The notes: a model not told the origin generated them from the sequence alone. Counted from the stretch's first letter, positions 2,814-42,180 are shown. The stretch is 64,000 bases of DNA from Candidatus Moraniibacteriota bacterium (GCA_030648835.1 JAUSGT010000001.1:551-64550), one strand, 5' to 3'. Translations and numbers: made by a program.

Positions 2814-2847
2814 ATATGATGTATGTTGCATAGTACAATACGTTCGT

Positions 2848-3356: not shown

Positions 3357-5036
3357 TTGAAAGGGCTAAACTGGATCCGTTTATTCCAAGCGATGAGGAC
3401 GAGGGATAAGGTTCTGGTGGCTTTTTTTTCCGGACTTGGCGTTGTTGCGCTTTTATTCTGGCTTTCCGCCTTGTATCTGGTTTCGACTAAAACTGTTCCG
3501 AAAGCGGGAGGTGAATACATCGAGGGGATCGCCGCTCAGCCGCGCTATATCAATCCGGTTCTCTCACAGACAAGCGAGGCAGACGCGGATTTGACGCAGC
3601 TTATTTACAGCGGTCTTTTCGGTTATGACGCATCCGGCAATTTGGTGAAACGAATGGCAGCGGACTGGAGCGTTTCCGGAGATGGGAAGCTGTACACGGT
3701 GACGCTTAGGCCAGGCATCAAGTGGCATGATGGCGAAGAAGTGACCGCGGACGATGTCCTCTATACCACTCAGGTCATTTTGGACCCAAGCTACAAGAGT
3801 CCGCTCAGGGCCATTTGGCAGACGGTGGAGGTGATGACGGTGGATCGCTATACGGTAACCTTCGCGCTCAAGAAACCGTATTTCGGATTTTTGGAAAACC
3901 TGGTATTGGGGATCCTCCCCAAGCATATCTGGGAAAATATCGCTCCGGAGAATTTCCTTTTGGCTGATTACAATCTCGCGCCGATTGGATCGGGTCCGTA
4001 CAGCTTTTTCGATTCCGAGAAAGATTCCAGCGGCAATATGCTCTCCTATGAATTACGCGCTTGGAATGATTATTTCGACGGAGCGCCCTACATTTCAAAA
4101 ATCATCTTTCATTTCTACCCCGACGAGGCGACGCTCATCGATGCCTACAACAGAAAAGAAGTATTGGGCATCAATTCCGTGACGCCGGAAAATCTTTCCC
4201 GGTTGGAAGAACACAAAAGCACCCGTGTCTATGATATCAATGTCCCGCGCATTTTTGCCGTTTTTTTCAATACGACCAAGAATGTCGCGTTGGCTCATGA
4301 CGAAGTGCGTCAGGCCTTGAGTTATGCCACAGACCGAAGCGCGATTATAGAGGAAGTGCTTTCCGGAAAAGGTCAGAGCGCCTATAGCGCGTTTTTGCCT
4401 TTTATGACCGGGTATGCCGCTGATCTCGAAAAACCCACTTTCGATATTGGGAAAGCCAACGCGCTTCTTGAAGACAACGGCTGGAAGCGGGGCGAGGACG
4501 GAGTGCGTTCCAAAAATGGTGACTCTCTGTCTATCGAGTTGACGGTACCCGACTGGCCGGAACTTACTCGGACAGCGGACTTGCTCAAGACGCAGTGGGG
4601 AGAGGCGGGCGCGCGCATCAGCGTGAATGTCCTTGGCGCCGCGGATCTTCAGCAGAATGCCATTCGACCACGCGAATATGAGGCTTTGCTCTTCGGGGAA
4701 GCGGCGATGATTGATTCCGACCCATATTCTTTCTGGCATTCGAGCAATAAGCACGACCCGGGTCTCAATCTGGCCCTTTTTGACAACAAAGATGCCGATG
4801 ATATACTGGCCACGCTGCGCGAGGAATTGGATCCGGAGAAGCTTCGCGAGAAGTACCGTGCGTTTCAGGAGATTCTCTTTGCGGAAAATCCGGCTGTCTT
4901 TCTTTACTCACCGACGTATCTGTATGTCGTGAACAGCACCGTCAAAGGTATCGATGTGCAAAGTGTGGACGCCGCGCCATTTCGCTTGAGCAATGTGAAG
5001 GATTGGTATATCAGTACTCAGCGTGTTCGTAAGTAA
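3357..5036 (+). CDS. ABC transporter substrate-binding protein, family 5 (peptide/nickel type)
   Basis: 559 aa with an N-terminal signal/anchor. Its length and motifs ('GIKWHDGEEVTADDV', 'PYSFWHSSNK') are typical of SBP_bac_5. No permease or ATPase lies adjacent. Confidence 0.75.
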   Translation: MKGLNWIRLFQAMRTRDKVLVAFFSGLGVVALLFWLSALYLVSTKTVPKAGGEYIEGIAAQPRYINPVLSQTSEADADLTQLIYSGLFGYDASGNLVKRMAADWSVSGDGKLYTVTLRPGIKWHDGEEVTADDVLYTTQVILDPSYKSPLRAIWQTVEVMTVDRYTVTFALKKPYFGFLENLVLGILPKHIWENIAPENFLLADYNLAPIGSGPYSFFDSEKDSSGNMLSYELRAWNDYFDGAPYISKIIFHFYPDEATLIDAYNRKEVLGINSVTPENLSRLEEHKSTRVYDINVPRIFAVFFNTTKNVALAHDEVRQALSYATDRSAIIEEVLSGKGQSAYSAFLPFMTGYAADLEKPTFDIGKANALLEDNGWKRGEDGVRSKNGDSLSIELTVPDWPELTRTADLLKTQWGEAGARISVNVLGAADLQQNAIRPREYEALLFGEAAMIDSDPYSFWHSSNKHDPGLNLALFDNKDADDILATLREELDPEKLREKYRAFQEILFAENPAVFLYSPTYLYVVNSTVKGIDVQSVDAAPFRLSNVKDWYISTQRVRK

Positions 5037-19950: not shown

Positions 19951-22347
19951 ATGGAAAAAAATACAAAAACAGGCAAGAAAAAAAATTTATTTCGAATACT
20001 CTTCCCCTTTATGAAAGGTAGAACGGGAAAAATCCTTTCATTTTTCGCTTCGCGGAGGCGTGATTATTTTTTTGTGTTTCATTCTCTGATGCGGGGGAGG
20101 AAAAACATAAAAAAATACGCTTATTCCGGCGGACTGATTTTTCTTTTTGCTATCGTTCTCTCCTCGACCGTTTATTTTCAGGACCGGCGTTCTCATGAAT
20201 CTGCCTCGTCGGTGGAAGTTGGCTTTTTCTCTCTTTCTCCCAACGGTTCTCTCGGAGGTGAAATTCTCCCGGCTTCCTGCGAATCTGGTACTATTCATGA
20301 GATGTCTGGCTGTGACATGACCTTTTGGGCTGATAGCACATCACTGCCTTATGGCGGGAGTACCAGCTTACATTGGTACGTACCCACAGGGAATGTGAAT
20401 GCTTATGTCGGTGTTATGAATTCTCATCCCGGCTATCCCGATGGCTTGGAAATTGGTCATATTCAAAGCTGTGTTGCTTCGGGTGACTGGAGCGGTGATC
20501 AAAACGCCAGACCTTATCCTGAAACATACTCTTATTGGTCAACCATCGGTGGTGGTTATCATTTTTATGCTCGACAAAGTGACCCAGGCACAGGATCCTT
20601 AACTTCAACCAAGACGTATAATTTAACCTGCACCATCAACTATCCGGCTTCAGGGGGACAAGATGTGGTGACGAAAAGCGTGACGGTGAATGTTGCGCCG
20701 CATCCTCCCGCTGCCGCCATTTCTGCTGTGCCCAACACGATCCCGTGGAATAGCGCGTCTTTACTTATTTTGGACTCGCAATACTCTACGCGTTGTGGAC
20801 TGGGATATTATGACTATTCCGGAGTTTGGAACAATTCTTCGATAACTCCCAATACAACGATCTACCAATCCACGGGGCCGCTTACTGCCAATCGGACCTA
20901 TTATTTCACCTGTGACAATGGCACTCAAAGCAACCCTGGTGGTTGGCAGCCCGTTGCTATTACTGTTGATCCCGCGCCTACTTCATCCATTTCTGTCTCT
21001 CCTCCTAATCCCGTACCCAATGGCGCCAATCCTAGCTTCACGCTGAACACGAATGCCACAGCTTCTATCTGTTATGTCCGGCATATATTTCCGAATGGTG
21101 TGTGGGACTCGTGGGGTGTGGATAACGCCACCCCGGGTGCTCCGGGTGGAACGTACTATCCCGGACCACAAACCTATTCCGGTACTCATTATGCCGCTTC
21201 TTATTGCTACAATTCCCTTTGGAAGGGACCTACCGTCTGGACGTATACGGGCTTCACTGTTGATCCGGCGCCTACCGTCTCCGTCTCTATCTTACAGAAC
21301 CCTCCTGTACCTTACGGGAGCAACCCGGGTTTCAAACTGGAATCGCAAAATACCGCCGGAGGTACATGCTACATCCAAGTGGATGGTGCCTATCTCACTG
21401 ACGGAACTGATATCTATTTGCCCACATCTGGGACATTTTATCACGGTGCCTTTACCTCACCGGGAACGCATAATTACCGGGCCTTCTGTTACAATTCTGT
21501 AGGGTACGGTACTGGTTGGACGCCTCCAGCTCCGACGAATTATTATTATTTTACCGTCGACCCCGCTCCCACTGCCTCTATCTCTCCAAATGTGACCATA
21601 CCGTATGGGAGCAGTACCACACTCACTCTTTCCAATACCAACTCTTCAACGTGTTATCTGTACAGCACGGCCACTGGATGGGATTACACAAACCGTGCCG
21701 GTACCACCTCTTACAATACAAGCCCTCTGACCGCCACCACTTCCTATACATATCATTGTACGAATGGATATGTTTGGAGTGATAATTATCTTGGCGCTAA
21801 CAATCCAGGCTATCCATGGGCTACGGTTACTGTCGAACCGCCACTACAGCTGTGTCGTAATATAGGAGGAACCTATCAAAAAATTGCAACTCAGGGCGGC
21901 ACGGCTGGTTTTGAGTTGCTCGTTCATGGAGAAGAGTCTGCAATACTTAGGACATATCTCAATAATGCGAATAATTGTTCAGGAAGGGATATAACAGATC
22001 AAACAATTTTTGTCGAGAAAAATAATCCACAAGATGTTATCAGGGTAACTGGTTCGAATCCAAAAATTGTTGAAGCGACTTTGGATATATTACCTCCCAA
22101 AAAGCAGTCAGGAACAGAACGAATTGTTGTCTCCTATAACGGACAGGAGGTTAGTCGAGACATTAACGTTGATGTAGCTGTAGTAGAAAATTGTGTATGG
22201 GACTGTTCGCTAACAGAGAAAGACCATTGTTCAGTGGATGCCAATAATGAAAAGCTAAAGTACAAAGTAACTGACAGCTGCGACATCGAACAGTCTTGCG
22301 ACGGCAAAAGATACTGTGATTACAATTACAAGGAAGTGTCGCCGTAG
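19951..22347 (+). CDS. Large secreted/surface protein with tandem Ig-like repeats and the conserved Cys-rich C-terminal cassette (P1)
   Basis: 798 aa. Internal hydrophobic anchor, three tandem 'FTVDPAPT...' beta-sandwich-like repeats, and a C-terminus '...SCDGKRYCDYNYKEVSP'. The true start may be the internal MRGRKN. Confidence 0.6.
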   Translation: MEKNTKTGKKKNLFRILFPFMKGRTGKILSFFASRRRDYFFVFHSLMRGRKNIKKYAYSGGLIFLFAIVLSSTVYFQDRRSHESASSVEVGFFSLSPNGSLGGEILPASCESGTIHEMSGCDMTFWADSTSLPYGGSTSLHWYVPTGNVNAYVGVMNSHPGYPDGLEIGHIQSCVASGDWSGDQNARPYPETYSYWSTIGGGYHFYARQSDPGTGSLTSTKTYNLTCTINYPASGGQDVVTKSVTVNVAPHPPAAAISAVPNTIPWNSASLLILDSQYSTRCGLGYYDYSGVWNNSSITPNTTIYQSTGPLTANRTYYFTCDNGTQSNPGGWQPVAITVDPAPTSSISVSPPNPVPNGANPSFTLNTNATASICYVRHIFPNGVWDSWGVDNATPGAPGGTYYPGPQTYSGTHYAASYCYNSLWKGPTVWTYTGFTVDPAPTVSVSILQNPPVPYGSNPGFKLESQNTAGGTCYIQVDGAYLTDGTDIYLPTSGTFYHGAFTSPGTHNYRAFCYNSVGYGTGWTPPAPTNYYYFTVDPAPTASISPNVTIPYGSSTTLTLSNTNSSTCYLYSTATGWDYTNRAGTTSYNTSPLTATTSYTYHCTNGYVWSDNYLGANNPGYPWATVTVEPPLQLCRNIGGTYQKIATQGGTAGFELLVHGEESAILRTYLNNANNCSGRDITDQTIFVEKNNPQDVIRVTGSNPKIVEATLDILPPKKQSGTERIVVSYNGQEVSRDINVDVAVVENCVWDCSLTEKDHCSVDANNEKLKYKVTDSCDIEQSCDGKRYCDYNYKEVSP

Positions 22348-22450: not shown

Positions 22451-24199
22451 ATGCGTATCGAACTTGATCAGCTCAAAAGTTTTTTGCTTGATTCTAATCT
22501 CATCCCCAAGGAAAAAGTGGAACAGGCAGCGGCAGAAGCCGAGAAGAATGAGAAAAATCTTGGGGTACTCCTTTTGGAGAAAAAACTCATTCAAGAAGTG
22601 GAGTTGCAGAAAGTGTACGCCTATATTCTGGGTATTCCGTTCGTGGATCTTTCCAAGGAAACCATACCGATCGAGATACTGCAGATTGTTCCGGAGCTCA
22701 TTGCCAAAAAATACAATATTGTTTCTTTCGAAAAAACCGGAGTCAATCTGAAGGTGGCCATGCTCAATCCCGAGGATCTCCAGACGATCGATTTCATCAA
22801 GAAAAAAACCGGCTTGAAAATTGTGCCGTGTCTCACCACTCAGGAGAGCATCCAGGCGATACTTCGTCAGTATGAGAAGAGTCTCAAAGCGGAGTTTGGC
22901 GACATTTTGACAGGGGAGATCAAACCGGACGGCGAGAGTCAGGACGATGAGGATCTCGAGCAAGTGGCTGCGGGTCTGCCCATCATCCGTATCGTGGATA
23001 CGCTTTTGAAACACGCCATTCTCGAATCGGCAAGCGATATCCATATCGAACCGGAAGAAAAAGAAGTGCATGTCCGTTATCGGATCGACGGCGTTTTGCA
23101 TGACGCGATGACTTTGCCCAAAGACGTGGCGGCCGGCATTGTGGCACGCATCAAAGTGCTCTCCAATTTGAAACTGGATGAACATCGTCTTCCACAGGAC
23201 GGGCGATTCAAGATCCAGAGTGACGAGTACAAGATCTCTTTCCGGGTCAGTATGTTGCCGGTGTTTGACGGGGAGAAAATTGTGATGCGTCTTCTGGACG
23301 AGACCTCCAAAGGGTTGACGCTCGAGAAAATGGGGCTGAATGGCCAGGCACTGGAAGCGGTACACCGGGAAATCAGCAAACCGAACGGTATGATCCTCGT
23401 CACCGGTCCGACCGGTTCCGGAAAAACAACGACGCTCTATACCGTGATGGATATTTTGAATACCCCGGAAGTGAATATCTCGACCGTCGAGGATCCGGTA
23501 GAATATCGGATGCCGCGCGTGAATCAGACACAGATCAATCCGAAAGTCGGGATGACGTTTGCCGCGGCGCTGCGCTCCCTTTTGCGTCAGGATCCGGACA
23601 TCATCATGGTGGGGGAAATTCGCGACCAAGAAACCCTGGAAATCGCCATGCACGCGGCGATGACGGGGCATCTGGTGCTTTCTACTCTCCATACCAACAA
23701 CGCGTCCGCGACATTGCCTCGGATGCTCGATATGGGAGCGGAACCGTTTCTCATCGCCTCAACGGTGAATGTCATTATCGCTCAGCGTCTCATCAGGCGC
23801 CTGTGTGTCGAATGCCGCAAGGCCTATCAGCTCGACAAAAAAGAAATCGAATCACTTCAAAAATTCTATACTATCGACGATATTTTCACCTATCTCAAAA
23901 ACGATCCTGCCAGTAAGAAATATGTCGAGAAGGCAAAGAGTTGGGAAGAAATTACCATGTACAAGCCGGTCGGCTGCGATAAGTGCGGAGGTGAAGGCTA
24001 TCATGGTCGCAACGGTATCTATGAGGTTCTGCCGATGACCGACGGTATCCGCAAGCTGGTGACGCAGTCGGCGTCGACCGAGATGATCGAGACCGAAGCC
24101 AAGAAGAGCGGGATGGCGACGATGGTGGAGGATGGTTTTTCAAAAATCGTGCAGGGGATGACCTCGCTCGAAGAAGTGATGCGCGCGACGAAGGAGTAG
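22451..24199 (+). CDS. pilB: Type II secretion / type IV pilus assembly ATPase (GspE/PilB family)
   Basis: 582 aa. N-terminal GSPII_E N-domain, Walker A 'GPTGSGKTTTLY', and the tetracysteine motif (CVEC...CDKCGGEG). Confidence 0.9.
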   Translation: MRIELDQLKSFLLDSNLIPKEKVEQAAAEAEKNEKNLGVLLLEKKLIQEVELQKVYAYILGIPFVDLSKETIPIEILQIVPELIAKKYNIVSFEKTGVNLKVAMLNPEDLQTIDFIKKKTGLKIVPCLTTQESIQAILRQYEKSLKAEFGDILTGEIKPDGESQDDEDLEQVAAGLPIIRIVDTLLKHAILESASDIHIEPEEKEVHVRYRIDGVLHDAMTLPKDVAAGIVARIKVLSNLKLDEHRLPQDGRFKIQSDEYKISFRVSMLPVFDGEKIVMRLLDETSKGLTLEKMGLNGQALEAVHREISKPNGMILVTGPTGSGKTTTLYTVMDILNTPEVNISTVEDPVEYRMPRVNQTQINPKVGMTFAAALRSLLRQDPDIIMVGEIRDQETLEIAMHAAMTGHLVLSTLHTNNASATLPRMLDMGAEPFLIASTVNVIIAQRLIRRLCVECRKAYQLDKKEIESLQKFYTIDDIFTYLKNDPASKKYVEKAKSWEEITMYKPVGCDKCGGEGYHGRNGIYEVLPMTDGIRKLVTQSASTEMIETEAKKSGMATMVEDGFSKIVQGMTSLEEVMRATKE

Positions 24200-24258: not shown

Positions 24259-25713
24259 ATGAAATCAAAAAAGCAAAAATACAATTTGTTATTTTTGAAA
24301 ACTCTAGTGGCGGCAGTTTTTGTTTTCGTTCTGCCACTTTTTGTTTTTGCGCAGACATCCAATGAACCTACATCATTACCTGCACAAAATGTGGAAGTCA
24401 GTCCCTTGACGACATCGCCTCCGCCATCTTTCATTTCTCCAAACGCATTTCAAGGGCAGCCAACCGGACTCAGCTCCTGCTTTGACTATTACCGCTTCGG
24501 TTCCATACAGGTGAGTGTCTCGCCATCGCTCTCTCAAGTGATGCAGGGATCCGCTATCGCCTTCTCCGGTACCGTCACCAACCAAAATCACTATCCCATC
24601 ATTGATGCGACCGTCTACATCAAGATTTTTCATGATCGCACGGGCGGCGCAAAAAATATAAACGGTCCCGACGTGGTTGATTGGTTCCCCGCGGCTGAGC
24701 ACATCACGCTCAAAGCCGATGAATCGAAACCGCTCTCATTCGTCTGGCAGGTGCCGTATGACGCTGACCCGGGTGCGTATAAAGCGGCGATGTATGTGAC
24801 GGCATCCGACCGTTTCGAGCTCTCCGGCCTTGTCTTTACTGACGATGTCACGGGGTCTATGGAATCGTTCGATGTGGTTGGCAGCGCTTCTGGCGATACG
24901 CGCTTCGACAAAGCTAGAGTAACGATAAACGACATCCCCTTCTATTTTGCTGCGTTCCCTCCCACTATTGCGGCATCAACAAAGACCGTCACGGTGTCTG
25001 TCCCCGTAATGAATTCGTCCGCTCGATCTTACGCCGGAACGCTCTCTTGGAAACTCTATTACTGGGATCAGCTTCAGACAAATCATCTTATCGCGCAGTC
25101 GAGTGTCGCCATCAATCTTAATCCCGAAAGCGCCACGACGGTTTCGTATGTCGTGAATGATACTGCTCATGCAGTTTATTATCTCGTCGGCTCTCTCGAG
25201 AACTCGATGAGCGGTGCGAAGTCAATTATCGGCGTACGCTTCGTACGCGAAGGAGTTGCCGAACCGCGCATCAATGCGATGGGGGTAAGTGCCTATCCAC
25301 CCACGCAGGGTGCAACAGCTTTTGTCTGTGTGCACTCGACGAGCAATGATCTGTCCCAGAACGCGCGGGTGGAGTTGTCGGTAACGCCTGTTGGTTTTCT
25401 TGCCGGTCTTTTGGGGCCGCGTGCGCATACCGCCTATACAGGAATTATTCCGGGCGATATCTATGCACTCACCGCACCGATTGCGGGCAGAGCATCCTCT
25501 TTTGACCTCACCGCCTTCCTTTACGACGGACAGGGCGCTTTGGTTGATAGTGTGACGATACCGTATCGCTGTAGCGATCTCGGCGCAAAGTGCAATGATA
25601 TGACTTTGCCGATAATTCTTGGCACTCTTGCTATCGTCGTTATTATTGGCGCAATCATTATCGTCCGACGTCGGCATGCATATGCCCGACAACAGAATCA
25701 ATCAAACGTATGA
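24259..25713 (+). CDS. Cell-surface protein with a signal peptide and a C-terminal TM anchor plus basic tail
   Basis: 484 aa. Signal peptide 'VAAVFVFVLPLFVFAQT'. C-terminus 'LPIILGTLAIVVIIGAIIIVRRRHAYARQ'. Its stop overlaps the next start (ATGA). Confidence 0.6.
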   Translation: MKSKKQKYNLLFLKTLVAAVFVFVLPLFVFAQTSNEPTSLPAQNVEVSPLTTSPPPSFISPNAFQGQPTGLSSCFDYYRFGSIQVSVSPSLSQVMQGSAIAFSGTVTNQNHYPIIDATVYIKIFHDRTGGAKNINGPDVVDWFPAAEHITLKADESKPLSFVWQVPYDADPGAYKAAMYVTASDRFELSGLVFTDDVTGSMESFDVVGSASGDTRFDKARVTINDIPFYFAAFPPTIAASTKTVTVSVPVMNSSARSYAGTLSWKLYYWDQLQTNHLIAQSSVAINLNPESATTVSYVVNDTAHAVYYLVGSLENSMSGAKSIIGVRFVREGVAEPRINAMGVSAYPPTQGATAFVCVHSTSNDLSQNARVELSVTPVGFLAGLLGPRAHTAYTGIIPGDIYALTAPIAGRASSFDLTAFLYDGQGALVDSVTIPYRCSDLGAKCNDMTLPIILGTLAIVVIIGAIIIVRRRHAYARQQNQSNV

Positions 25714-27983
25714 GAAGTTATCGCGCGAATCAAAGCCGAACCATCTATTTTGTTTTTGCATTCGTGCTTACCGTGCTTTTGACGCCGGTGCGGAGCGAAG
25801 CAGCTTCGGCGACATGGAGCAAAACAATGTCAGACACATACCTTGCGTATGCCTGGAATAATGGCGGGTGTTCCGGAACAGGTGGTTATACGTTGGGGCT
25901 TGCGAATCCAAGCTTCGGTGTCACTTATAACGCTCAAGTTCTCTCATCGTCTGGGGTTCCTATAGCTTCTTCCGGTACAGTGACGAGCGGTCAGTCGGTC
26001 ATTCTCAAATTTCAACCTCACCAATCATCCGATATCTCGTGGTTTGGAACGGGGTATTCAACGGACACTCCTTTCGGCGAATGGGGGACTTCCGCTCCGG
26101 CGTTGACATGTGACAGCAAGGATCAGGTGACTACTTGGAGTATGTATGGAATACGGGCATACATCCCTCTGGTAATAGCTCCTCCGACACAGACGCTTTC
26201 AAATCTTTCCGGGCTCTCGTGCGGTGTTTTGACTCACAATAGTGATGGAAGCGACCAGACGACTTGCACCGTTACGGCAACGAGCGGCACTCTTTCTCCG
26301 ACTTTCGACTTTGCGGCGACTACGGGAACGCTTTATTACCGGTATGACAAGTATCCGTATAGTTGTACTCCAAATGCGTGTGTGGCAAATAATACTCCTA
26401 TGGCGCTTATGAATGCCGGTTCCGGGGCTACTATCGCAAACTGGTACCAAAAAGGAGGAACCATAGGAATAGGAGCTCTTTGGAATGCTTCTACCACTCC
26501 TTTTCAACTTTCCGTTACTGACCAAAGCATCTCATACAGTCTGACTGTTTCTCCGCCTGCCGCATCGCCAAATACACCAACAGTTACCTGTCCTGCTACT
26601 GCTACCGTCGGACAGAACGCCTTTTTCACCGTTACCGGGACAGACCCGAACGGTTTGACGATACGTTATGGTATGGACTGGACCGGTTCAAGTTCTACAC
26701 CTAATGAATGGACTCCTGTAAGCGGGTATGTGCTTTCCGGTACGCAAATGATGTTGATGCATACCTGGGCTTCTGCTGGTATCTACGGGGTTCGTGCACT
26801 TACGGAAAATTCACAGGGTGGACAATCCGGCTGGTCAACGGGTTGTACAGTGACCGTCACTCTTCCGCCGCCGCCAACTATACTTTTTGTCGTATCTCCG
26901 ACATCGGTTATAACATACGCGAGTTCGCTTACGGCTTCTATCGGAAGTGAAACTGCCGTGTTGTCATGGTATTCCATAGGCGCTACTTCGTGCACGGCTT
27001 CAGATTCGTGGTCCGGATCAAAAGATATCGGATTTATGCCAATAACGTGGGCGTCTTGGCAAGAAACAGTCGGGCCATATGCGACTGCAGGGAGCTACCT
27101 ATATACGCTTTCTTGTACTGGTTTAGGTGGTACTGTGTCGAAGACGGTGACAGTCACTGTCAACGACACTTTTCCCGTCACTACCTTCACCGGTACGTAT
27201 GCCGGACTACCAGCCCAAACGAATCTGACCACTCTCAACCTCCCAGTTGGCGGAGGCAGTGTCAATCTCAATTGGTCTGTCACGAATGCTGCTTCAGGAA
27301 TCTGTACCGGATACTCAACCACAGGAGTAACTGATTGGGCAACGACTGGAACTGACGGCAAACCAGTGACTGGCACAAATGTCTCAGTCACTGTCTCTGG
27401 TACAACGACATTTGATCTCGATTGTTGGAATACCTCTACAACCCCATGGGTAGCAGCCACTCGGCAGTCTGTCGTGGTGAATGTGGCTGTTCCCCCCTCC
27501 ACTCTCAAGATCTGCCAGGACTCTTGCCAAAACTCTTACCGTACTCCTCGTGGCCAAGGCGGCGCCACGACAAGCTTCAGCCTTGTCAAAGGCACTTCCC
27601 AAGACCTGGTTGCCTGCTACAATACTGTCTCTGACTGTTCTGATTCTTCAGGCGATGTTACAGCATCACCCGGTACTGTTTGGGCAGAAGATGCTTCTAA
27701 CAATATTATTTCCCTTTCTTCGGTTCTGGGCAAAGAACGTGTCACCGGCGACGCTCCTGGCACGGAAAACTTCACTGCCCAGTACAGCGGAGCAACCGCT
27801 ACGATGGCTGTTTCTGTCACCTGCGTTGAAACGGTGACATGCACCTCCGAACAAAACAAAGTCTGCTCCGGCAAAACAGTACCCGCCGGAACAACCCTTA
27901 CCGGAATTTGTGGGCCAGTCTACTGCGAAGGCAAGTCCGGCAAGAGATATTGCGACTTCAACTGGAAAGAAGTGGCTCCGTGA
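25710..27983 (+). CDS. Large secreted protein with Ig-like repeats, a Big_2-like domain and the conserved Cys-rich C-terminal cassette (P2)
   Basis: 757 aa with a signal peptide. Ig-like repeats fit the pattern 'S..L.W......C.....W.G....TYTL.C.G.GG..S.TVTV'. The C-terminus is 'CEGKSGKRYCDFNWKEVAP'. Confidence 0.65.
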   Translation: MRSYRANQSRTIYFVFAFVLTVLLTPVRSEAASATWSKTMSDTYLAYAWNNGGCSGTGGYTLGLANPSFGVTYNAQVLSSSGVPIASSGTVTSGQSVILKFQPHQSSDISWFGTGYSTDTPFGEWGTSAPALTCDSKDQVTTWSMYGIRAYIPLVIAPPTQTLSNLSGLSCGVLTHNSDGSDQTTCTVTATSGTLSPTFDFAATTGTLYYRYDKYPYSCTPNACVANNTPMALMNAGSGATIANWYQKGGTIGIGALWNASTTPFQLSVTDQSISYSLTVSPPAASPNTPTVTCPATATVGQNAFFTVTGTDPNGLTIRYGMDWTGSSSTPNEWTPVSGYVLSGTQMMLMHTWASAGIYGVRALTENSQGGQSGWSTGCTVTVTLPPPPTILFVVSPTSVITYASSLTASIGSETAVLSWYSIGATSCTASDSWSGSKDIGFMPITWASWQETVGPYATAGSYLYTLSCTGLGGTVSKTVTVTVNDTFPVTTFTGTYAGLPAQTNLTTLNLPVGGGSVNLNWSVTNAASGICTGYSTTGVTDWATTGTDGKPVTGTNVSVTVSGTTTFDLDCWNTSTTPWVAATRQSVVVNVAVPPSTLKICQDSCQNSYRTPRGQGGATTSFSLVKGTSQDLVACYNTVSDCSDSSGDVTASPGTVWAEDASNNIISLSSVLGKERVTGDAPGTENFTAQYSGATATMAVSVTCVETVTCTSEQNKVCSGKTVPAGTTLTGICGPVYCEGKSGKRYCDFNWKEVAP

Positions 27984-28073: not shown

Positions 28074-28646
28074 ATGCTTGAACAGTCTTCACGACCGTTG
28101 AAAGTTGCTCTATCAGTATTATGTGTCGTCATGCTTGCGGTGCTTGTTCTTGTTATTTTGGGAGAGAATGGGGTGCTCGGAAAGAAAACAGTAATTACCC
28201 AGCCCGCCGTTACTACGAGCCAGTCTCAACCACAAACTGTACAGCCGGTACCGCCGACAGAAGTGCGCAGAGTACTCGGTACGGTAGAAAAAGTTTCCGG
28301 TCAAGAGATCATGCTTAAGGATTTTAGGAAAATATCGAGTATTGTTACCGCTGTATCCGATCAATCGGAGCGTATGTTTGTCACCGTCGATCAGTCGACG
28401 ATTATTGAACGCTTTACGTATAAAGACGCAACAACCATAGCGAAAGAGCAGGATGCTTTTGTTAAAAATATTCAAGAAATACAACGACAAAACCCGTCTG
28501 TCCCTCCGACACCGCCGGAACCTTTTACGTTTGAAAAAATTACATTGAGTGATATCAAAATTGGTGACAAAGTTATGGCGTCTTTTGGGGAGGATATATC
28601 AAACCTTGCGACTTTCACAGCGACAAAAATAGAAGTACGAAATTAA
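28074..28646 (+). CDS. Small N-anchored hypothetical protein (paralog of the 19169 gene)
   Basis: 190 aa. N-terminus 'SSRPLKVALSVLCVVMLAVLVLVILGENGVLGKKTVIT'. Confidence 0.55.
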   Translation: MLEQSSRPLKVALSVLCVVMLAVLVLVILGENGVLGKKTVITQPAVTTSQSQPQTVQPVPPTEVRRVLGTVEKVSGQEIMLKDFRKISSIVTAVSDQSERMFVTVDQSTIIERFTYKDATTIAKEQDAFVKNIQEIQRQNPSVPPTPPEPFTFEKITLSDIKIGDKVMASFGEDISNLATFTATKIEVRN

Positions 28647-28650
28647 ATTT

Positions 28651-30411
28651 ATGAGATCAAACCATTTTCATCTAAAATTTATTGCAGTAGCGACATTGTT
28701 TTTGTTTGTTGGGATTTTCCCGATTCGACAGACTCATGCTGCTGCTGACGGCACCCTTTTTGGTTGGGGGATGAATTTCTACGGCAATCTCGGCTTAGGT
28801 TGGGCCAGCCACGGTTATAGCAATGCCCTAGGTTTTTCCCGTGACTATGTCCTTTCTCCGACCCAAGTCGGGATGGCAACAAATTGGGCCAGCATCTCGG
28901 CGGGAAACTTTTTTGTTATGGCCACAAAGGCCGACGGCACCCTGTGGGGTTGGGGGAATAATTCCTCCGGTCAGCTCGGTTTAGGCTACATTTCTAACCC
29001 GCCTTACTCTTGGGATTCTGGGTATTCTACCGGTATTTGGTCCCCGACCCAAGTCGGATCGGGAACAAATTGGGCCAATGTCGCGGCAGGGGACAGTTTC
29101 GTTTTAGCCGTAAAAACCGACGGCACCTTGTGGGCTTGGGGAGGTAATCCTGATGGACAACTTGGTTTAGGTGATACAATTAGTCGTTCGGTACCAACTC
29201 GGGTCGGGACAGATACAAATTGGTCTGGTGCTGTGGGGAAGATTTCCGGAGGATATGCAAATTCTGCGGCTGTAAAAACAGACGGTACTATTTGGGTTTG
29301 GGGAAGTGATGTATTTGGCGAGCTCGGTCAAGGCAACACCAATGGTGCCATCAGTCGCTATTATCCGACCCAAGTCGGAACGGCGACGAATTGGGACAAA
29401 GTTTCGGCGATGGGTCAATTTACCGTTTTAGCCACCAAGACCGACGGCACCCTTTGGGCTTGGGGAGATAATATGTATGGCCAGGTTGGTCCCGGGTATG
29501 TCGACTACTCTGGTAATGGTCAACATTCTGTACCGGCTCAAGTTGGGACGGGGACAAATTGGAGTAGTATTGGTCAGGGAGATACATACTCTATGGCTTT
29601 AAAGAGGGATGGCACTATGTGGGTCTGGGGTAGGGTTTCTATCCCGTTCGCCGTCAATTGTGATGTGTCGGGCTGCTATGGGATGACAGGTTCTCCGACC
29701 CAAGTTGGGACGGCAACGGATTGGCGTAGTTTTGGAGCATATCCCTATCCCACCAGCGTGGCTGCTATAAAGACAGACGGTACCCTGTGGGATTGGGGGA
29801 ATAATTGGTATGGTAATCTCGGCTTAGGTGATACCGTCACTCGCAATTCCCAGACCCAGGTCGGAACGGGAACAAATTGGGACAGCGTTACGTCGGGCAT
29901 ATATGGAACTATGGCAATAACAGGCACACCTCCTCCTCCAACCACCCTCAAAGCATGCGTGAGCTCCTGTACTACGACGGGAGCCAGTGCCATCACGAAT
30001 TTGACTATGGCTTACAATAGTACGAGTACTATCGCAGCTTGTTACAACACCGCCGCAGCCTGTGATGCGCCCGATAACACTGGGAATGTTACTCTTTCTT
30101 CTGCATGGGCAGAGTCCGGGACAGACGTTGTTTCTCTCTCGGATCAAAGCAATAGTACGAAGAAATTCCAATCAGGAACAGCATATGGCACGGAAACAAT
30201 CACTATCACATATCTGACACAATCAGTAACACTGAATGTGACCGTACCTTGCATCGAAACGATGACATGCGCTGCTGAACAGACAAAAGTCTGTTCCGAT
30301 AAAACAGTGCCCACTGGAAAAACTCTTTCCGGAATCTGTGGAACAGTCGACTGCGGCGGCAAGCCTGGCAAGAGGTATTGTGATTTCAACTGGAAAGAAG
30401 TGGCGCCGTAG
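28651..30411 (+). CDS. Secreted RCC1-repeat (beta-propeller) protein with Big_2-like domain and the conserved Cys-rich C-terminal cassette (P3)
   Basis: 586 aa with a signal peptide. At least seven 'DGT[LI]W[AGV]WG.N..GQLGLG' RCC1 repeats. The C-terminus 'CGGKPGKRYCDFNWKEVAP' is about 70% identical to the P2 tail. Confidence 0.7.
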   Translation: MRSNHFHLKFIAVATLFLFVGIFPIRQTHAAADGTLFGWGMNFYGNLGLGWASHGYSNALGFSRDYVLSPTQVGMATNWASISAGNFFVMATKADGTLWGWGNNSSGQLGLGYISNPPYSWDSGYSTGIWSPTQVGSGTNWANVAAGDSFVLAVKTDGTLWAWGGNPDGQLGLGDTISRSVPTRVGTDTNWSGAVGKISGGYANSAAVKTDGTIWVWGSDVFGELGQGNTNGAISRYYPTQVGTATNWDKVSAMGQFTVLATKTDGTLWAWGDNMYGQVGPGYVDYSGNGQHSVPAQVGTGTNWSSIGQGDTYSMALKRDGTMWVWGRVSIPFAVNCDVSGCYGMTGSPTQVGTATDWRSFGAYPYPTSVAAIKTDGTLWDWGNNWYGNLGLGDTVTRNSQTQVGTGTNWDSVTSGIYGTMAITGTPPPPTTLKACVSSCTTTGASAITNLTMAYNSTSTIAACYNTAAACDAPDNTGNVTLSSAWAESGTDVVSLSDQSNSTKKFQSGTAYGTETITITYLTQSVTLNVTVPCIETMTCAAEQTKVCSDKTVPTGKTLSGICGTVDCGGKPGKRYCDFNWKEVAP

Positions 30412-30425: not shown

Positions 30426-33002
30426 TTGTTGTATATTACAATCAAAATGCAAACAGAAAAACAATTACAAAACCTAATATTTTTAAGCATTGGTATAGTG
30501 GCAGCATTTGTTTTTGCTGTTCCGTTTTTTGTTCTTGCGCAGGAAACAGAGGGACCTGTTTTTGGTGACACAGTCCAGAGTAAAGCCGTGCTTTTGGCAA
30601 CAGTGAATATTTATAATGCTACTTTCATACAAACCGGAAACAATTTCTCCCTTTCCTTTGATTTAACGAATAAGGTTGGTGTTCAGCCGGGGATCAAATA
30701 CAGCGCCGTTCTCATAAAAGAAACAAAAGAGGGGCAGGTTGTTGTGGATGAACATGTCTATGACGAAGTTGTGGCTCTCGGTGAGAATAGCTCTGTGCAT
30801 AAAATAGTCGACTATACAGCCCCAGCCAATTTGGAAGGCGAATATACTCTTCTTATTTCAAGTAAAAATACGAGTGATTTTCCTTTTGGGCAAATCTTGC
30901 TCGGTACAGTAAACCTTCAAAAGAGCGCCACTGATGCGAATCCAATTGCTATAGACACACAGAGTTGCTACCTGACAGTAGAAGGGGAAGAAGGCCAGCC
31001 GCACCACGTCCCTTCTCAGGGCGTTGTTATTTCTTCTGCCGAAAATTTACAAAGTAATTGTTTGGTAGAGAATACTTCGAGTTCTCCAGTCGTTACCACA
31101 CCTTTATTTACCACTCGCGCGCGTTCAAATTTTGGCGGTACAGTAGACGCGCAAGGTGGTGATATCGGCTCCATCACACTGGCTCCGTACGAAAAGAGAA
31201 TGGTTGTCACCGCGCTCCCGAAACCGTTACTGTCTCAATCCTACTCTGTGAATCTGCAATATGGATCAACAAGCAATAGAATCTCCTATTATTACGTTAT
31301 TTCGGGTGGTGGCGCGACGATTCAAAGCATCCTTTTTGATAAAGACAATTATACAAAAGGAGAAACAGCGGATATTTCGTTTATGTGGTCACCATCCGTC
31401 GATACTCTTCGTAGCTTTTCTCAGGGAACAACCCCAAAACCAACTACATTTTCTGTCACTATTTTACTGGTTGACGAAAACGGAAATTCTTGTGCCAATC
31501 CTTTCAATCAATCCGTTACCAGCCAAGAAATGCGGTTGGAGCTTACGATACCTATGACTGCTTCTTGTCTTCACCCGAAAGCGGATGTGACACTCATGGA
31601 CGCACAGTCAAACACGTCATCCCACGTCTCATTTGAGACAGGGGTGGCATCTCCATCTTTGCAAAAAGGACCCAATGTAAAAATTGTCGCTCTTTCCGTG
31701 TTTGTGATCCTCTTATTCATCATAGGCGCCTTTGTCTTTTACAGAAAAAGAATTCGTATTTCTCTGCCGCCGACCTTGCTCTTCTTTATTGTCGTTATGG
31801 GGAGTATGTTTCTTGGCCCAGGCAGCGCGAAAGCGGATACATTTGCTATGGGTTACGGAGTTTACACAGTGTCAATCAATAAAGCCTCATATGCACCTGG
31901 TGAACCAATGACAATTTATGGTTCGGTGCGAAACCTCGTACCTTCTCTTACTTTTGAATTTCGTCTTTTCTATGCTATCGATACAAGTATTTATAATTCA
32001 TGTCCAAGTTGTCGCAATGTTTTTGATGTAGGTGTCGGGGGATCTCCTTATTCAACTTCTGTCAGCGCTTTTGCCCCATCTGGTGTAGGGGGGCATAGTG
32101 TTACTTTTCTTGCCGCTGATGCTGTGTTTGCGGGGGTTCATACGTTAGCGGGTGGTTTTACTGTTACATCGGCGTGCGCCCCAGATCAAGGTACTGCGTG
32201 TCCTTCAACAACTGCCAACGTTTGCGGTCAGACTCAGTCCGACGGCGCTATTCAATGCGATGGTTCTTGTTCATCAACTACGCCACCGATAACTACTCCC
32301 AATGGTACTACCTATCGTGCTTCCTGTGTCTCTTCCACCAACGCCTGTGATCAGACTCAGTCCGATGGCACTATTCAATGTGATGGTTCTTGCTCATCGA
32401 CTCCTCCACCGAATTCAAATTGTCCGCTTCCTACTCTCGATTTTTCTGCCAACCCGACCACAGTTACGTCTGGTGATTCATCAACCATCACCTGGACGAC
32501 AACTAATGCTACCTGGTGTTGGGCATGGTCGGATAATACGATGAACGATGGGAACTGGACAATTTTTGATGATGGCACCCCGGGTGATAATTGGAAAATT
32601 AGTACTGATGGAACTCATACTCAAACTGTCTTTCCGACTGCTTCCACTACGTATAGTATGGAATGCGGAAACAGTATCGATGCTTCTTCCGGAGCAAAGC
32701 AAGCCACGGTGACGGTGCCTGCGAGAATAAATGGTGGATGGTCTCTTTGGTCAAACTGTTCTTCTACAACTTGTGGAACGGATGGGACACAAACGAGAAC
32801 GTGTACCAACCCCGCTCCTTCGGGCGGCGGTGCGGATTGTGTTGGACCTCTCACTCAGAGTTGCACCAATCTGCCTTGCTGTATTCCGGATTGCAGCGCG
32901 GCTGTCAATTACTGTAGTGGCACTAGCTTCGATGACAGTTGTGGGGGATCATGCACCGGTACTCGCTTTTGCAATTTCAATTGGAAAGAAGTGGCGCCGT
33001 AG
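30426..33002 (+). CDS. Fusion-like surface protein: an N-terminal paralog of the 24259 anchor protein, an internal TM and signal-like segment, a thrombospondin type-1 repeat and the conserved Cys-rich C-terminus (P4)
   Basis: 858 aa. The signal peptide 'VAAFVFAVPFFVLAQETEGP' resembles that of the 24259 product. An internal stretch 'VALSVFVILLFIIGAFVFYRKRIRISLPPTLLFFIVVMGSMFLGPGSAKA' has TM, basic and signal-peptide-like character. The TSP1-like stretch is 'WSLWSNCSSTTCGTDGTQTRTC'. The protein ends 'FCNFNWKEVAP'. Confidence 0.6.
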   Translation: MLYITIKMQTEKQLQNLIFLSIGIVAAFVFAVPFFVLAQETEGPVFGDTVQSKAVLLATVNIYNATFIQTGNNFSLSFDLTNKVGVQPGIKYSAVLIKETKEGQVVVDEHVYDEVVALGENSSVHKIVDYTAPANLEGEYTLLISSKNTSDFPFGQILLGTVNLQKSATDANPIAIDTQSCYLTVEGEEGQPHHVPSQGVVISSAENLQSNCLVENTSSSPVVTTPLFTTRARSNFGGTVDAQGGDIGSITLAPYEKRMVVTALPKPLLSQSYSVNLQYGSTSNRISYYYVISGGGATIQSILFDKDNYTKGETADISFMWSPSVDTLRSFSQGTTPKPTTFSVTILLVDENGNSCANPFNQSVTSQEMRLELTIPMTASCLHPKADVTLMDAQSNTSSHVSFETGVASPSLQKGPNVKIVALSVFVILLFIIGAFVFYRKRIRISLPPTLLFFIVVMGSMFLGPGSAKADTFAMGYGVYTVSINKASYAPGEPMTIYGSVRNLVPSLTFEFRLFYAIDTSIYNSCPSCRNVFDVGVGGSPYSTSVSAFAPSGVGGHSVTFLAADAVFAGVHTLAGGFTVTSACAPDQGTACPSTTANVCGQTQSDGAIQCDGSCSSTTPPITTPNGTTYRASCVSSTNACDQTQSDGTIQCDGSCSSTPPPNSNCPLPTLDFSANPTTVTSGDSSTITWTTTNATWCWAWSDNTMNDGNWTIFDDGTPGDNWKISTDGTHTQTVFPTASTTYSMECGNSIDASSGAKQATVTVPARINGGWSLWSNCSSTTCGTDGTQTRTCTNPAPSGGGADCVGPLTQSCTNLPCCIPDCSAAVNYCSGTSFDDSCGGSCTGTRFCNFNWKEVAP

Positions 33003-35324: not shown

Positions 35325-36074
35325 ATGATAACGGTCTATGTGTATACTTTTGTCGGGGTACTCGTGGTGAGTGTGATTTCTTTGGTGGGAGTATTTATTT
35401 TTTCCTCTCGAGAAGATATCTTGCGAAAATATATTTTTATATGTATCAGTCTGGCAGTGGGGGCGCTCCTCGGTGACGCGTTTATTCATCTGATACCCGA
35501 GGCGCTCGAAAAATCTTCGGACACCACCGCTACCGGTGTCTTCATCATTCTGGGTATCCTCTCGTTTTTTACTTTGGAAAAAGTTCTTCATTGGCACCAT
35601 CATGGCGAAGACGCGAAAGAAAATCATATTCATCCGGTAGGCAGACTGATACTTTTTTCGGATGGTGTCCATAACTTTTTGGACGGTACCATCATTGCGG
35701 CAAGTTTTATGGTGAGTGTTCCGGTAGGTGTCGCTACGACTCTCGCCGTTATCCTCCACGAGATACCCCAAGAGGTGGGAGATTTTGCCATATTGCTTCA
35801 CTCCGGGTACTCGAGGAGACGAGCTCTTGTGCTCAATTTTCTATCCGCTCTTACGGCGTTTGTGGGAGCTGTGGCTTTTTTCGCGTTTGGTGAACTTTCG
35901 AAATCTTTGGTGGATTATTTTATTCCTCTTGCCGCAGGAGGTTTTATTTATATTGCCGCTTCCGATCTTATCCCCGAACTCCACAAAACAAAGCAGGCGA
36001 GACACTCTCTCTACCAACTGGTGGCGGTGCTCTTGGGGGTTCTCGCCATGGTTGCTCTCGCCTTTTTAAACTAG
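35325..36074 (+). CDS. ZIP-family zinc transporter (ZupT-like)
   Basis: 249 aa with eight TM segments and the conserved 'HEIPQEVGDFAILL' metal-binding motif. Confidence 0.8.
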   Translation: MITVYVYTFVGVLVVSVISLVGVFIFSSREDILRKYIFICISLAVGALLGDAFIHLIPEALEKSSDTTATGVFIILGILSFFTLEKVLHWHHHGEDAKENHIHPVGRLILFSDGVHNFLDGTIIAASFMVSVPVGVATTLAVILHEIPQEVGDFAILLHSGYSRRRALVLNFLSALTAFVGAVAFFAFGELSKSLVDYFIPLAAGGFIYIAASDLIPELHKTKQARHSLYQLVAVLLGVLAMVALAFLN

Positions 36075-38073: not shown

Positions 38074-38532
38074 ATGTTTATGTTGAAAGCTAACAAAGGG
38101 TCTGCCCTTGTTTTCTCACTAATCATTCTCGGATTTCTTTTGGTATCGGCTCTTTCCGTGGCGACTATCGCGGTGGCCGACAAAAAATCCGCTCTCTCTA
38201 CCGAGAAGTCCGGCATTTCTTTTCAGACTGCCGACAGTGGGATAGAGAGAGTTTTGCAAACAATTTATAAGAAGGCACCTACAGGCTTGGAAAGTTTGGC
38301 AACTAAATTGGGAGGCGGAGCTTCTTGCAGGAGTGGAGTGGTTTCTTTCTCTGTCGCTCAAGGAAACGTGAAAGTTTTCTTTTATGAAGGTGTAGAAGGT
38401 AAAACTCTTTATACAAGATGTAATAATGATGCTACTTGGCGGAGTACTATCAATAAAATTAAATCCGTAGGGACGTATGCCAATACGACGCGAGTGGTGG
38501 AAGTGAGCATAAATCCCCCTTCTCCTCCTTGA
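38074..38532 (+). CDS. Putative type IV pilus minor pilin / pseudopilin (PilX N-terminal-like)
   Basis: 152 aa. N-terminus 'KANKGSALVFSLIILGFLLVSALSVATIA' resembles the PilX_N hydrophobic segment. There is no canonical G-F-T-L-I-E prepilin cleavage motif. Confidence 0.4.
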   Translation: MFMLKANKGSALVFSLIILGFLLVSALSVATIAVADKKSALSTEKSGISFQTADSGIERVLQTIYKKAPTGLESLATKLGGGASCRSGVVSFSVAQGNVKVFFYEGVEGKTLYTRCNNDATWRSTINKIKSVGTYANTTRVVEVSINPPSPP

Positions 38533-41079: not shown

Positions 41080-42180
41080 TTATGTTCGGATATAGTGCAT
41101 GTTGCCGACATTGTGTATCAATCCTTTTATTTCGAGGAGTGTGAGGATGGAATTTGCGGACGATGTTTCCAGTCTAGCTTCTTTAATAATCTTGTCAACG
41201 TGGAGGGGTTCGTGCGAGAGGAGTTTGAAAATTTTTTCCTCTTCAGGAGAGAGATTGGGGCGAACGGACAAATCTGTTTCCCCTAACTTATTTTTTAGTG
41301 GGTGAGTTTGAGGAAGCTCTTCGAGAATATCCTGTACCGATGTGATTATTTTGGCGCCGGCTTTGATGAGGCGATGGGTGCCAAGCGAAGCTTCCGAAAA
41401 AATGGATCCCGGTACTGCAAAGACTTCCCGATTGTAGTCAATGGCCAGCCGGGCAGTGATGAGCGCTCCGCTTTTTTCCGGAGCCTCGATGACGACTGTG
41501 CCGAGTGTCATACCGGCGATGATGCGGTCGCGAGCCGGGAAGGTTCCTTCGGTAGCTTTGACGCCGGGGGCATACTCGGAAATGAGCGCGCCGGCATTCA
41601 CCACGGCACGGGCTAAAGGAAGATGCGATTGGGGGGAGATAGACGCTTCGTCGACTCCGCTTCCCAGGATGGAAAGTGTTTCACAACCGGCCTCAAGGGC
41701 GGCCTTGTGAGCGATGGAATCGATGCCAAAGGCGAGGCCGGAGACTATCACATACCCGGCATGCGCGAGATCGGTCGCGAGACGTTTGGCTACTTGTTCA
41801 CCGTAACCGGTAAGTTTGCGCGTGCCGACTATGGCAATGAGCGGTTTTTCCTTCCAATCATAATTACCGCGCACGAAAAGAATCATCGGCGCGTCAGGGA
41901 TCTCTTTCAAGAGGCGCGGATACGCTTCATCGGTGAAAGCCAAAATATGTACTCCTTGGTCTTCGATATGTTGCCACTCCTTGTTAGGCTGGAGGGAATT
42001 TCTTCCGGCAGTAATAGCGGCGACGGTGATGGGGCCGAGACCGTTTACGGCGAGGAGGGATTTTTCATCCGCTTCCCAAATGGCCTCGGCCGAACCGAAA
42101 TGGACAATGAGATCGCGGAGCGTCTTGTTTCCGATTCCTGGGATGAGACTGAGAGCGTAGAGGATGGCAGTCGGGCGCAT
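41080..42180 (-). CDS. dprA: DNA processing protein DprA (Smf)
   Basis: 366 aa with the Rossmann-like DprA core 'GIDSIAHKAALEAG...'. It lies upstream of topA in the conserved smf-topA arrangement. Confidence 0.85.
   Translation of the reverse strand: MRPTAILYALSLIPGIGNKTLRDLIVHFGSAEAIWEADEKSLLAVNGLGPITVAAITAGRNSLQPNKEWQHIEDQGVHILAFTDEAYPRLLKEIPDAPMILFVRGNYDWKEKPLIAIVGTRKLTGYGEQVAKRLATDLAHAGYVIVSGLAFGIDSIAHKAALEAGCETLSILGSGVDEASISPQSHLPLARAVVNAGALISEYAPGVKATEGTFPARDRIIAGMTLGTVVIEAPEKSGALITARLAIDYNREVFAVPGSIFSEASLGTHRLIKAGAKIITSVQDILEELPQTHPLKNKLGETDLSVRPNLSPEEEKIFKLLSHEPLHVDKIIKEARLETSSANSILTLLEIKGLIHNVGNMHYIRT

Follow-up and report, generated by a model that had tools for sequence, protein, structure and literature searches.

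A 64,000-nucleotide stretch of the genome of a Candidatus Moraniibacteriota bacterium (GCA_030648835.1 JAUSGT010000001.1:551-64550; this whole stretch is referred to below as the window), a member of the Candidate Phyla Radiation (CPR), encodes a thrombospondin type-1 (TSP1) repeat (TSR) within a modular, all-beta, predicted surface protein. A profile match, sequence matches to solved structures, and a predicted fold, which are independent of one another, identify the product of nucleotides 32727-32882 as a genuine TSR. We consider it likely that this short-form repeat is a cassette in the variable extracellular half of a modular CPR surface protein, with an adhesive or spacer role in attachment. 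The PF00090 assignment is already precomputed for this protein in domain databases, and the repeat is a further bacterial member of a well-defined family.

The sequence WSLWSNCSSTTCGTDGTQTRTCTNPAPSGGGADCVGPLTQSCTNLPCC corresponds to residues 772-819 of the open reading frame (ORF) at 30426..33002 on the + strand (nucleotides 32739-32882); with its usual 'INGG' lead-in, the repeat comprises residues 768-819. The original prediction, made from the nucleotide sequence alone, had placed a TSP1-like repeat at 32728-32885; its position is right to within one codon, since the lead-in puts the start of the repeat at nucleotide 32727, but the literal translation of that span is out of frame. The domain call is borne out by the Pfam TSP_1 model (PF00090), which scores 24.8 bits for the whole protein (gathering cut-off 21.6; E = 2.5e-5) and 29.7 bits for the last 100 residues (E = 7e-7), with profile positions 2-49 of 49 covered. 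A phmmer search against all PDB chain sequences returned thrombospondin-1 TSR2-3 (3r6b, E = 1.3e-11; 1lsl, E = 4.5e-11) and UNC5B (E = 1.4e-9), with further matches to UNC5D, complement C7/C8/C6, BAI1, and ADAMTS13, and six of six cysteines aligned. These cysteines (778, 783, 793, 805, 813, and 818) align with the six of thrombospondin-1 TSR2/3 at the canonical spacing. The disulfide pattern of group-1 TSP1 repeats is C1-C5, C2-C6, C3-C4; by homology, the bonds expected here would be C778-C813, C783-C818, and C793-C805.

The predicted structure agrees with solved TSRs. In an AlphaFold2 (AF2) model of residues 764-858, built from a 129-sequence alignment, the block-mean predicted local distance difference test score (pLDDT) is 67-89 over the repeat, and the modelled beta-strands at residues 786-790 and 810-814 correspond to the B and C strands of a TSR. 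Among the matches listed by Foldseek against the PDB, 50 of 50 are TSR-containing structures, many at probability 1.00; they include thrombospondin-1, UNC5, properdin, ADAMTS13, C6-C9, BAI1, semaphorin-5A, F-spondin, and TRAP. The TM-scores of these matches are low, an effect of normalisation to the whole 95-residue query with its disordered C-terminal domain (CTD). An artefact (chance resemblance in a Cys/Gly/Thr-rich sequence, eukaryotic contamination, or a chimeric assembly) is extremely improbable: the domain is short and Cys-rich, with a whole-protein Pfam score only 3 bits over the cut-off, but the independent PDB sequence matches reach E = 1e-11 and the fold search agrees with them; the repeat lies in frame in a 2.6-kb ORF amid genes for pilB, relA/spoT, fur, and a ZIP transporter on a 204-kb contig; and homologous fusions of a TSR to the same CTD occur in other metagenome-assembled genomes (MAGs; L027, L069, P0159, and P0163, where L denotes a locus and P a protein or protein fragment retrieved in this analysis).

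The Trp/Arg ladder of the window TSR is reduced to two Trp and one Arg. Strand A has the WxxW motif (W772-S-L-W775), with two Trp rungs and not three; strand B (T-Q789-T-R791-T-C) has a single Arg, with Gln 789 at the other usual Arg position. By homology, these residues would be expected to stack. The same short form, with two aromatic rungs, one basic residue, and a B strand two residues shorter than that of the long form, accounts for 82/122 distinct repeats in prokaryotic loci. Across these 122 repeats, a two-aromatic A strand pairs with the shorter, one-basic B strand (82 versus 5) and a three-aromatic A strand with the longer B strand, as a layered Trp/Arg core predicts; this co-variation fits a ladder with one layer fewer. 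Fourteen of the 52 columns of the TSR alignment are invariant, and the loop and the 'CTNPAPxxGG' core are highly conserved across distant phyla.

TSRs are widely distributed in prokaryotes. A scan of GTDB (one genome per bacterial or archaeal species) with a single strict 9-residue pattern, [TYS]RTCTNP[AP]P, followed by tblastn confirmation, gave 108 confirmed TSR loci, of which 79 were kept. CPR/Patescibacteria make up 43 of the 79 as counted from record titles, the proportions of groups being biased by a pattern that was derived from a CPR-biased alignment; at least nine CPR groups are represented (Nomura-, Sacchari-, Moran-, Levy-, Yanofsky-, Shapiro-, and Magasanikbacteria, Paceibacterota, and Microgenomates). 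The other kept loci belong to DPANN or other archaea (three), Rickettsiales (six), Bdellovibrionota (four), and Gammaproteobacteria/Pseudomonadales (about 11), and the remainder include Omnitrophota, Myxococcales, Planctomycetales, and Thermodesulfovibrionia. Several loci are on long contigs or complete chromosomes (L041, 0.70 Mb; L056, 1.78 Mb; L080, 4.33 Mb). Despite the bias of the pattern, the absolute number of loci indicates that TSRs are an established prokaryotic module, and the original description of the repeat as rare in bacteria is not supported. Searches of the literature on CPR, Patescibacteria, Saccharibacteria, DPANN, Bdellovibrio, and prokaryotes generally found, among the papers examined, no link to type-1 repeats; the mentions of thrombospondin found there for CPR and predatory bacteria concern type-3 repeats only.

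The distribution bears on a second reading, in which the TSR was recently acquired from a eukaryotic host whose extracellular matrix proteins it imitates, a strategy put forward for the adhesins of apicomplexans. Such an origin is favoured by the classical descriptions of TSRs, which come from animals and apicomplexans (PMC3417536), and by a similarity of about 45-63% identity between the window TSR and fragments from a general sequence collection that are mostly eukaryote-derived (one, P0030, is named UNC5C); in the Foldseek comparison, identity is 49% to UNC5B and 46% to thrombospondin-1. The repeats of CPR bacteria are closer, however, at 63-79% identity, and they come from at least nine CPR phyla, with others in DPANN archaea and further bacteria. 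The form of the repeat also points away from a eukaryotic donor. An alignment-based search with the last 100 residues gave 917 matches, mostly exon-sized and without taxonomy, which were used to deepen alignments and to count repeat forms (a word-indexed search for homologs with the same query gave 13 short fragments); among the best matches (n = 97) of the mostly eukaryote-derived fragments, the long form accounts for 68/97 and the short form, predominant in prokaryotic loci, for 15/97. All 15 short-form fragments are on short contigs; the fragments are otherwise mostly exon-sized pieces of megabase contigs. A single long bacterial ORF encloses the repeat and joins it to a CTD whose occurrences in this analysis were confined to CPR loci and to metagenome proteins without a name, and the guanine-plus-cytosine (GC) content across the gene (0.45-0.50) is that of the window (mean 0.48), so that recent horizontal transfer was rejected on composition. 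Recent acquisition from a eukaryote is very unlikely in our judgement because the nearest relatives are from CPR bacteria, the form is short, and the GC content is native, although about 50 alignable residues cannot resolve the ultimate direction of exchange between domains; on the same grounds the eukaryote-like framing of the original prediction is not supported.

Prokaryotic TSRs also occur in arrays and in small anchored proteins. A Pseudomonadales chromosome (OZ220680.1; L080 1591-9276) has an ORF of at least 2562 residues with 11 TSRs of a distinct subtype with a 78-residue period, and Thermodesulfovibrionia and Pseudomonadota MAGs have proteins with five tandem TSRs each (L034 5188-7026 and L048 5524-7542). 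Pseudomonadales MAGs of two species (L003/L039 6001-8960 and L049 ~1-3379) encode a small single-TSR protein with a C-terminal transmembrane (TM) anchor; its gene is directly followed by genes for PMT-family (GT39) and GT87 glycosyltransferases. By analogy with the C- and O-glycosylation of eukaryotic TSRs, this adjacency hints at bacterial glycosylation of the repeat.

The protein carrying the window TSR is recorded as 'hypothetical protein Q7S04_00125, Candidatus Moranbacteria bacterium' (P0001; 100% identity over 97% of the query; 204-kb contig), for which NCBI uses a GTG start at 30498, giving 834 residues in place of those counted from the TTG in Table 1. Its N-terminal ectodomain is the conserved core of a family (P0002-P0016, L068, L042, and L010). 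No Pfam or NCBIfam model matched this ectodomain, and Foldseek returned generic MG/Ig-like arrays only; matches of the full-length model to alpha-2-macroglobulin and complement C3 (TM-scores 0.09-0.16) were set aside as generic beta-sandwich arrays that are uninformative on function. The second of the two hydrophobic helices that follow has the n-h-c layout of a signal peptide and an AxA signal-peptidase-type site (AKA/DTF); a small-residue -3/-1 site (AKA, ARA, VKA, AGA, or similar) is kept in all homologs read (P0002-P0006, P0009, P0010, P0012, and P0016). This helix may therefore be an internal signal peptide cut between A470 and D471, releasing the C-terminal half. The N-terminal signal peptide and the TM hairpin are predicted to place both halves of the protein outside the membrane, in keeping with the surface protein first proposed; the host-associated lifestyle assumed with it is plausible for a Moranbacteria (CPR) genome. 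The C-terminus (...CNFNWKEVAP) has no LPXTG anchor and no terminal TM segment.

The C-terminal half is a string of exchangeable modules. Two 4-Cys mini-modules carry the motif C[GD]QTQSDG[AT]IQCDGSCSST (nucleotides 32223-32279 and 32346-32402); both of these duplicated motifs had been noticed in the original prediction, but they lie 110-170 residues upstream of the TSR and not directly before it. At the DNA level, the modules are a 75-nucleotide direct repeat (32215-32289 and 32338-32412) of 85% identity, 123 nucleotides apart, an identity that points to a recent DNA duplication. A single copy of the 4-Cys module is present in a TSR protein from Yanofskybacteria (L016; C-x6-C-G-Q-T-Q-S-[DN]-G-x-I-Q-C-[DN]-G-S-C-S-S-T-P-P); it is thus a small conserved module without a database model. 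Ig/PKD-like modules similar to that of the window protein (residues 666-765) are present in L013 and L067, the type being a recurrent one among surface proteins of CPR bacteria. The homologs P0002-P0016 (from CPR bacteria wherever a source is named) are conserved to about residue 583 and then diverge completely, and TSRs recur in the variable half (P0006, Saccharibacteria L068, and Moranbacteria L042); the TSR thus behaves as a shuffled cassette. P0006 (1185 residues) ends in a degenerate TSR-like repeat, DWSSCTKSCGKGTQTRSCVDVNCNPYTSAPRDCNTTSC, that is without the first Trp and the CTNPAP core.

The free exchange of these modules among homologs is also what would be expected of a purely structural spacer, in which the TSR and the Cys-rich modules stiffen or lengthen a stalk and specificity resides elsewhere, in the N-terminal ectodomain or the CTD. 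The reduction of the ladder to one Arg fits this idea as well, as does the tandem repetition of TSRs in some bacteria, with as many as 11 copies in a protein (L080 and L034). However, the invariant columns and the retained 'CTNPAPxxGG' core amount to more conservation than spacers usually need, and eukaryotic TSRs are binding modules. A spacer role alone is somewhat improbable as the full account; it is compatible with an adhesive or spacer cassette functioning in attachment, and the two are not exclusive.

The CTD that follows the TSR is common to four secreted-protein genes on the + strand that flank pilB, where it occupies the last ~45-60 codons and ends in C[DN][FY]N[WY]KEV[AS]P; no other stop-free stretch of at least 80 residues in the window ends with this motif. 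The CTDs of the window proteins matched no Pfam model, no NCBIfam model at E <= 0.1, and no curated sorting-signal model. A profile made from three CTD sequences and searched against 1.84 billion representatives (E <= 1e-3) found 82 proteins of 55-1493 residues. The match is at, or no more than ~20 residues from, the C-terminus in 82/82, and within four residues of it in all but one; the other domains of these proteins (Big_2, TSP_1, PKD, CARDB, RCC1, fn3, and InlB-type repeats) include no enzymes. A metagenome scan for the CTD gave five loci on contigs of 1.4-5 kb, which are too short to show a gene context. The CTD model, based on three homologous sequences, has pLDDT <50.

A shorter terminal motif is enriched in TSR proteins generally. 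The pattern [FWY][KRIQ]E followed by 0-5 residues ends 20/62 complete TSR ORFs versus 12/699 other ORFs in the fetched loci (odds ratio 27, p = 8e-16), as in KKPIFIEN, RPIFKEQ, and WREIAPR; most of the 12 others are signal-peptide proteins of the same clusters. In Moranbacteria the motif is preceded by the 6-Cys knot (...C-x-G-T-R-x-C-D-[FY]-N-W-K-E-V-A-P). TSR proteins with the terminal motif were found in L006, L008, L010, L013, L016, L018, L026-L029, L050, L054, L055, L067-L070, and L076. Literature searches with the motif strings found no matches among the papers listed. The CTD looks like an undescribed sorting or docking domain.

In the window, a distance of 6.2 kb, occupied solely by genes for secreted proteins, separates the TSR gene from pilB, which is upstream and has the same orientation (Table 1); the TSR gene is the last of the four CTD genes, and the RCC1 propeller gene is directly upstream of it. 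Homologs of the 484-residue anchored protein adjoin TSR or CTD genes in L010, L042, and L070, two of which are from Moranbacteria. No pilC or pilM/N/O genes were found adjacent to the window cluster. A PilX_N-type pseudopilin (38074..38532) and DprA (41080-42180) are encoded a few kilobases downstream of the cluster, in keeping with the presence in this genome of a system for competence or type IV pili. In seven other CPR loci, pilB-pilC adjoins the TSR gene, which it directly follows in six loci and precedes in the seventh, L050; the chance expectation for a pilB near a TSR gene was estimated at 2-4% (12-kb neighbourhood, 1-Mb genome). The products of the TSR genes in L018 and L054 are small, combine 'GWAWSSNIGWISF' repeats with TSRs, and have KKPIFIE at the terminus. 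In L001 (6001-8919; L001/P0020), a relative partly syntenic with the window, a TSR protein ending in LPKTG is encoded beside a sortase gene, with a ZIP transporter gene adjacent as at 35325-36074 of the window; the repeat is of the same subtype as that of the window, so the same TSR subtype appears to be attached by a different anchoring route.

Table 1. Features of the TSR gene and its neighbourhood in the window, and pilB-pilC genes adjacent to TSR genes in other CPR loci (a slash within a sequence marks a predicted cleavage site)
Feature	Position (nt)	Strand	Residues or length	Details
Modular surface protein (predicted) with TSR	30426..33002	+	858 aa	ORF from first TTG
N-terminal Sec-type signal peptide (predicted)	30426..30539	+	hydrophobic core aa 13-38	...FFVLAQ/ETEG; hydrophobicity scan
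N-terminal ectodomain, all-beta, three beta-sandwich (CARDB/MG-like) domains	30594..31640	+	aa 57-405	AF2 pLDDT 75-91
TM helix 1, then basic loop RKRIR	31683..31742	+	aa 420-439	hydrophobicity scan, AF2
Basic loop and second hydrophobic helix	31743..31835	+	aa 440-470	ends GSAKA/DTF
First module of C-terminal ectodomain, beta-rich	31836..32174	+	aa 471-583	'SINKASYAPGEPMTIYGS...'; last family-conserved region
Two 4-Cys mini-modules	32215..32412	+	aa 600-618, 641-659	C-x6-C[GD]QTQSDG[AT]IQCDGSCSST
Ig/PKD-like module	32421..32720	+	aa 666-765	'FSANPTTVTSGDSSTITWTTTNATWC...'; strand pattern, low-confidence model
TSR, short form	32727..32882	+	aa 768-819	hidden Markov model, PDB sequence matches, structure model, Foldseek
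6-Cys CTD (including Cys 819)	32883..32999	+	aa 819-858	...CTGTRFCNFNWKEVAP; ends CNFNWKEVAP
Paralogous secreted protein with CTD	19951..22347	+	798 aa	ends CDYNYKEVSP
Type IV pilus assembly ATPase PilB	22451..24199	+		T2SSE 457 bits; TIGR02538 593 bits, below equivalog cut-off 675.65
Secreted protein with C-terminal TM anchor	24259..25713	+	484 aa	unannotated; weak PilY2 match
Secreted protein with CTD	25710..27983	+	757 aa	ends CDFNWKEVAP
Membrane-anchored protein	28074-28646		190 aa	unannotated; between CTD genes
Secreted RCC1 beta-propeller protein with CTD	28651..30411	+	586 aa	seven-bladed type; WD40_RLD 193 bits
pilB-pilC, L006	6855-9822
pilB-pilC, L013	6508-9571
pilB-pilC, L018/L004	6372-9435
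pilB-pilC, L026	8832-11813
pilB-pilC, L054	6356-9363
pilB-pilC, L067	1832-4823
pilB-pilC, L050	3-3459

The window TSR can be compared with several known systems. It belongs to the same Pfam family as the TSRs of thrombospondin-1 (TSR2/TSR3; 1LSL, 3R6B) and UNC5 (6OOL), with six aligned cysteines and a predicted elongated fold, and has in common with them WSxW, the 'CSxTCG' turn, and the 'R-x-C-x-N-P-x-P-x-x-G-G-x-x-C-x-G' core. It differs in having two Trp in place of three and one Arg (with Gln 789) in place of two or three, and in its sequence C-S-S-T-T-C-G, where one extra residue breaks the C-x-x-(S/T)-C-x-x-G O-fucosylation motif; its carrier is bacterial, with Ig-like modules and a novel CTD alongside, and no eukaryotic glycosylation machinery would be expected. 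Among prokaryotic short-form TSRs (L005-L083, from CPR, DPANN, Rickettsiales, Bdellovibrionota, and Gammaproteobacteria), it has 63-79% identity and the same layout of two Trp and one Arg. The 'CSxTACGxxGTQTRTC' subtype is common to the window TSR, L001, L005, L013, L014, L027, L069, and L077, and a TSR-CTD fusion like that of the window is found in L027, L069, L010, and L060. The window protein has a single TSR, against up to 11 elsewhere, and other prokaryotic TSR proteins have different architectures, with endings KKPxFIE[ND] or an LPxTG or TM anchor where the window protein has NWKEVAP.

Apicomplexan TRAP/MIC2 adhesins likewise belong to cell-attaching organisms and carry a TSR on a membrane-linked surface protein (PMC3417536), and TRAP is among the Foldseek matches; TRAP, however, combines a vWA domain and a TSR with a cytoplasmic tail that links to the gliding motor, and the window protein is unrelated to it in sequence outside the TSR. 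PilX2 of Saccharibacteria TM7x and PilY1 of Pseudomonas are, like the window proteins, secreted, non-pilin, beta-rich proteins encoded with pilus genes. For cultivated Saccharibacteria, the pilus adhesin proposed (PMC11623550) is an RCC1-propeller protein that has no prepilin signal and whose gene is found with pilus genes; it is the RCC1 propeller neighbour and not the TSR protein that resembles TM7x PilX2 (PMC11623550), and, unlike PilY1 and PilX2, the TSR protein is without a propeller, has a TM hairpin, and is associated with pili by gene neighbourhood only. The thrombospondin type-3 repeats of bacterial surface proteins (OmpA-like proteins and giant Omnitrophota proteins) share the name, but they are of an unrelated fold, calcium-binding and Asp-rich, and the window repeat is of type 1.

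These observations suggest a role for the TSR protein at the cell surface. The protein would be exported by Sec, with its N-terminal three-domain ectodomain followed by a TM helix and then by the internal-signal-peptide-like hydrophobic segment; the C-terminal string of modules (Ig-like, two 4-Cys, Ig-like, TSR, and CTD) would be displayed or possibly released, and the TSR, rigid and locked by disulfides, would serve as an adhesive or spacer module in attachment to a partner cell or to its surface glycans. By analogy with the TSRs of eukaryotic adhesins, a role of the repeat in attachment is most likely, and the cluster of surface proteins to which its carrier belongs probably mediates attachment to a partner cell. 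It is also possible, if rather improbable, that the protein is cut after A470 and that its C-terminal half docks as a pilus-associated adhesin, through the CTD or the [FWY]-[KR]-E motif, onto a type IV pilus or the cell wall. The signal-peptidase-type site kept in the homologs, the four CTD proteins flanking pilB, the C-terminal position of the CTD in all 82 representatives, the enrichment of the terminal motif in TSR ORFs, and the six motif-ending proteins encoded directly upstream of pilB-pilC would all fit such release, for which non-pilin adhesins encoded with CPR pili offer a precedent (PMC11623550); against it, no candidate sorting enzyme was found.

Several points weigh against a surface cassette serving attachment in a pilus context. 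The TM hairpin argues against a simple location at a pilus tip, except in the case of cleavage at the putative internal signal peptide. The ladder is a minimal one, with a single Arg and with Gln 789 in place of the other, so that a glycosaminoglycan-binding basic groove, of the kind by which animal TSRs bind these glycans, is probably weak. Model confidence is low for the C-terminal half and for the CTD, and pilB adjacency was found in only 7/43 CPR TSR loci and, within 6 kb, in 0/6 other NWKEVAP-type CTD loci (L010, L014, L027, L042, L060, and L069); the low-confidence CTD model and the last of these counts tell equally against docking of a released half. On balance, we retain the short-form TSR as a cassette in the variable half of a CPR surface protein as the best explanation. 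A wider proposal is that the TSR is cargo of an undescribed CPR system for sorting or docking surface proteins, in which secreted all-beta proteins, encoded in clusters often beside pilB-pilC, would attach to the type IV pilus or the envelope for host capture by a terminal [FWY]-[KR/I/Q]-E motif, with the internal signal peptide releasing the TSR-bearing half; we regard this as doubtful. If it were true, short-form TSRs would be an old mobile adhesion cassette of episymbiotic, predatory, and intracellular prokaryotes.

Surface proteins with a TSR cassette recur in CPR bacteria, in DPANN archaea, and in further prokaryotes that attach to cells. The finding also warns against taking 'eukaryote-like' domains of CPR bacteria as evidence of eukaryotic hosts or of recent inter-domain transfer. 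The CTD with its terminal motif, the candidate internal signal peptide, and the frequent adjacency to pilus genes are more novel leads than the TSR itself. Together with the TSR-bearing proteins, the CTD and motif and the adjacency to pilus genes provide concrete candidates for the means by which ultra-small episymbionts may recognize and hold their hosts.

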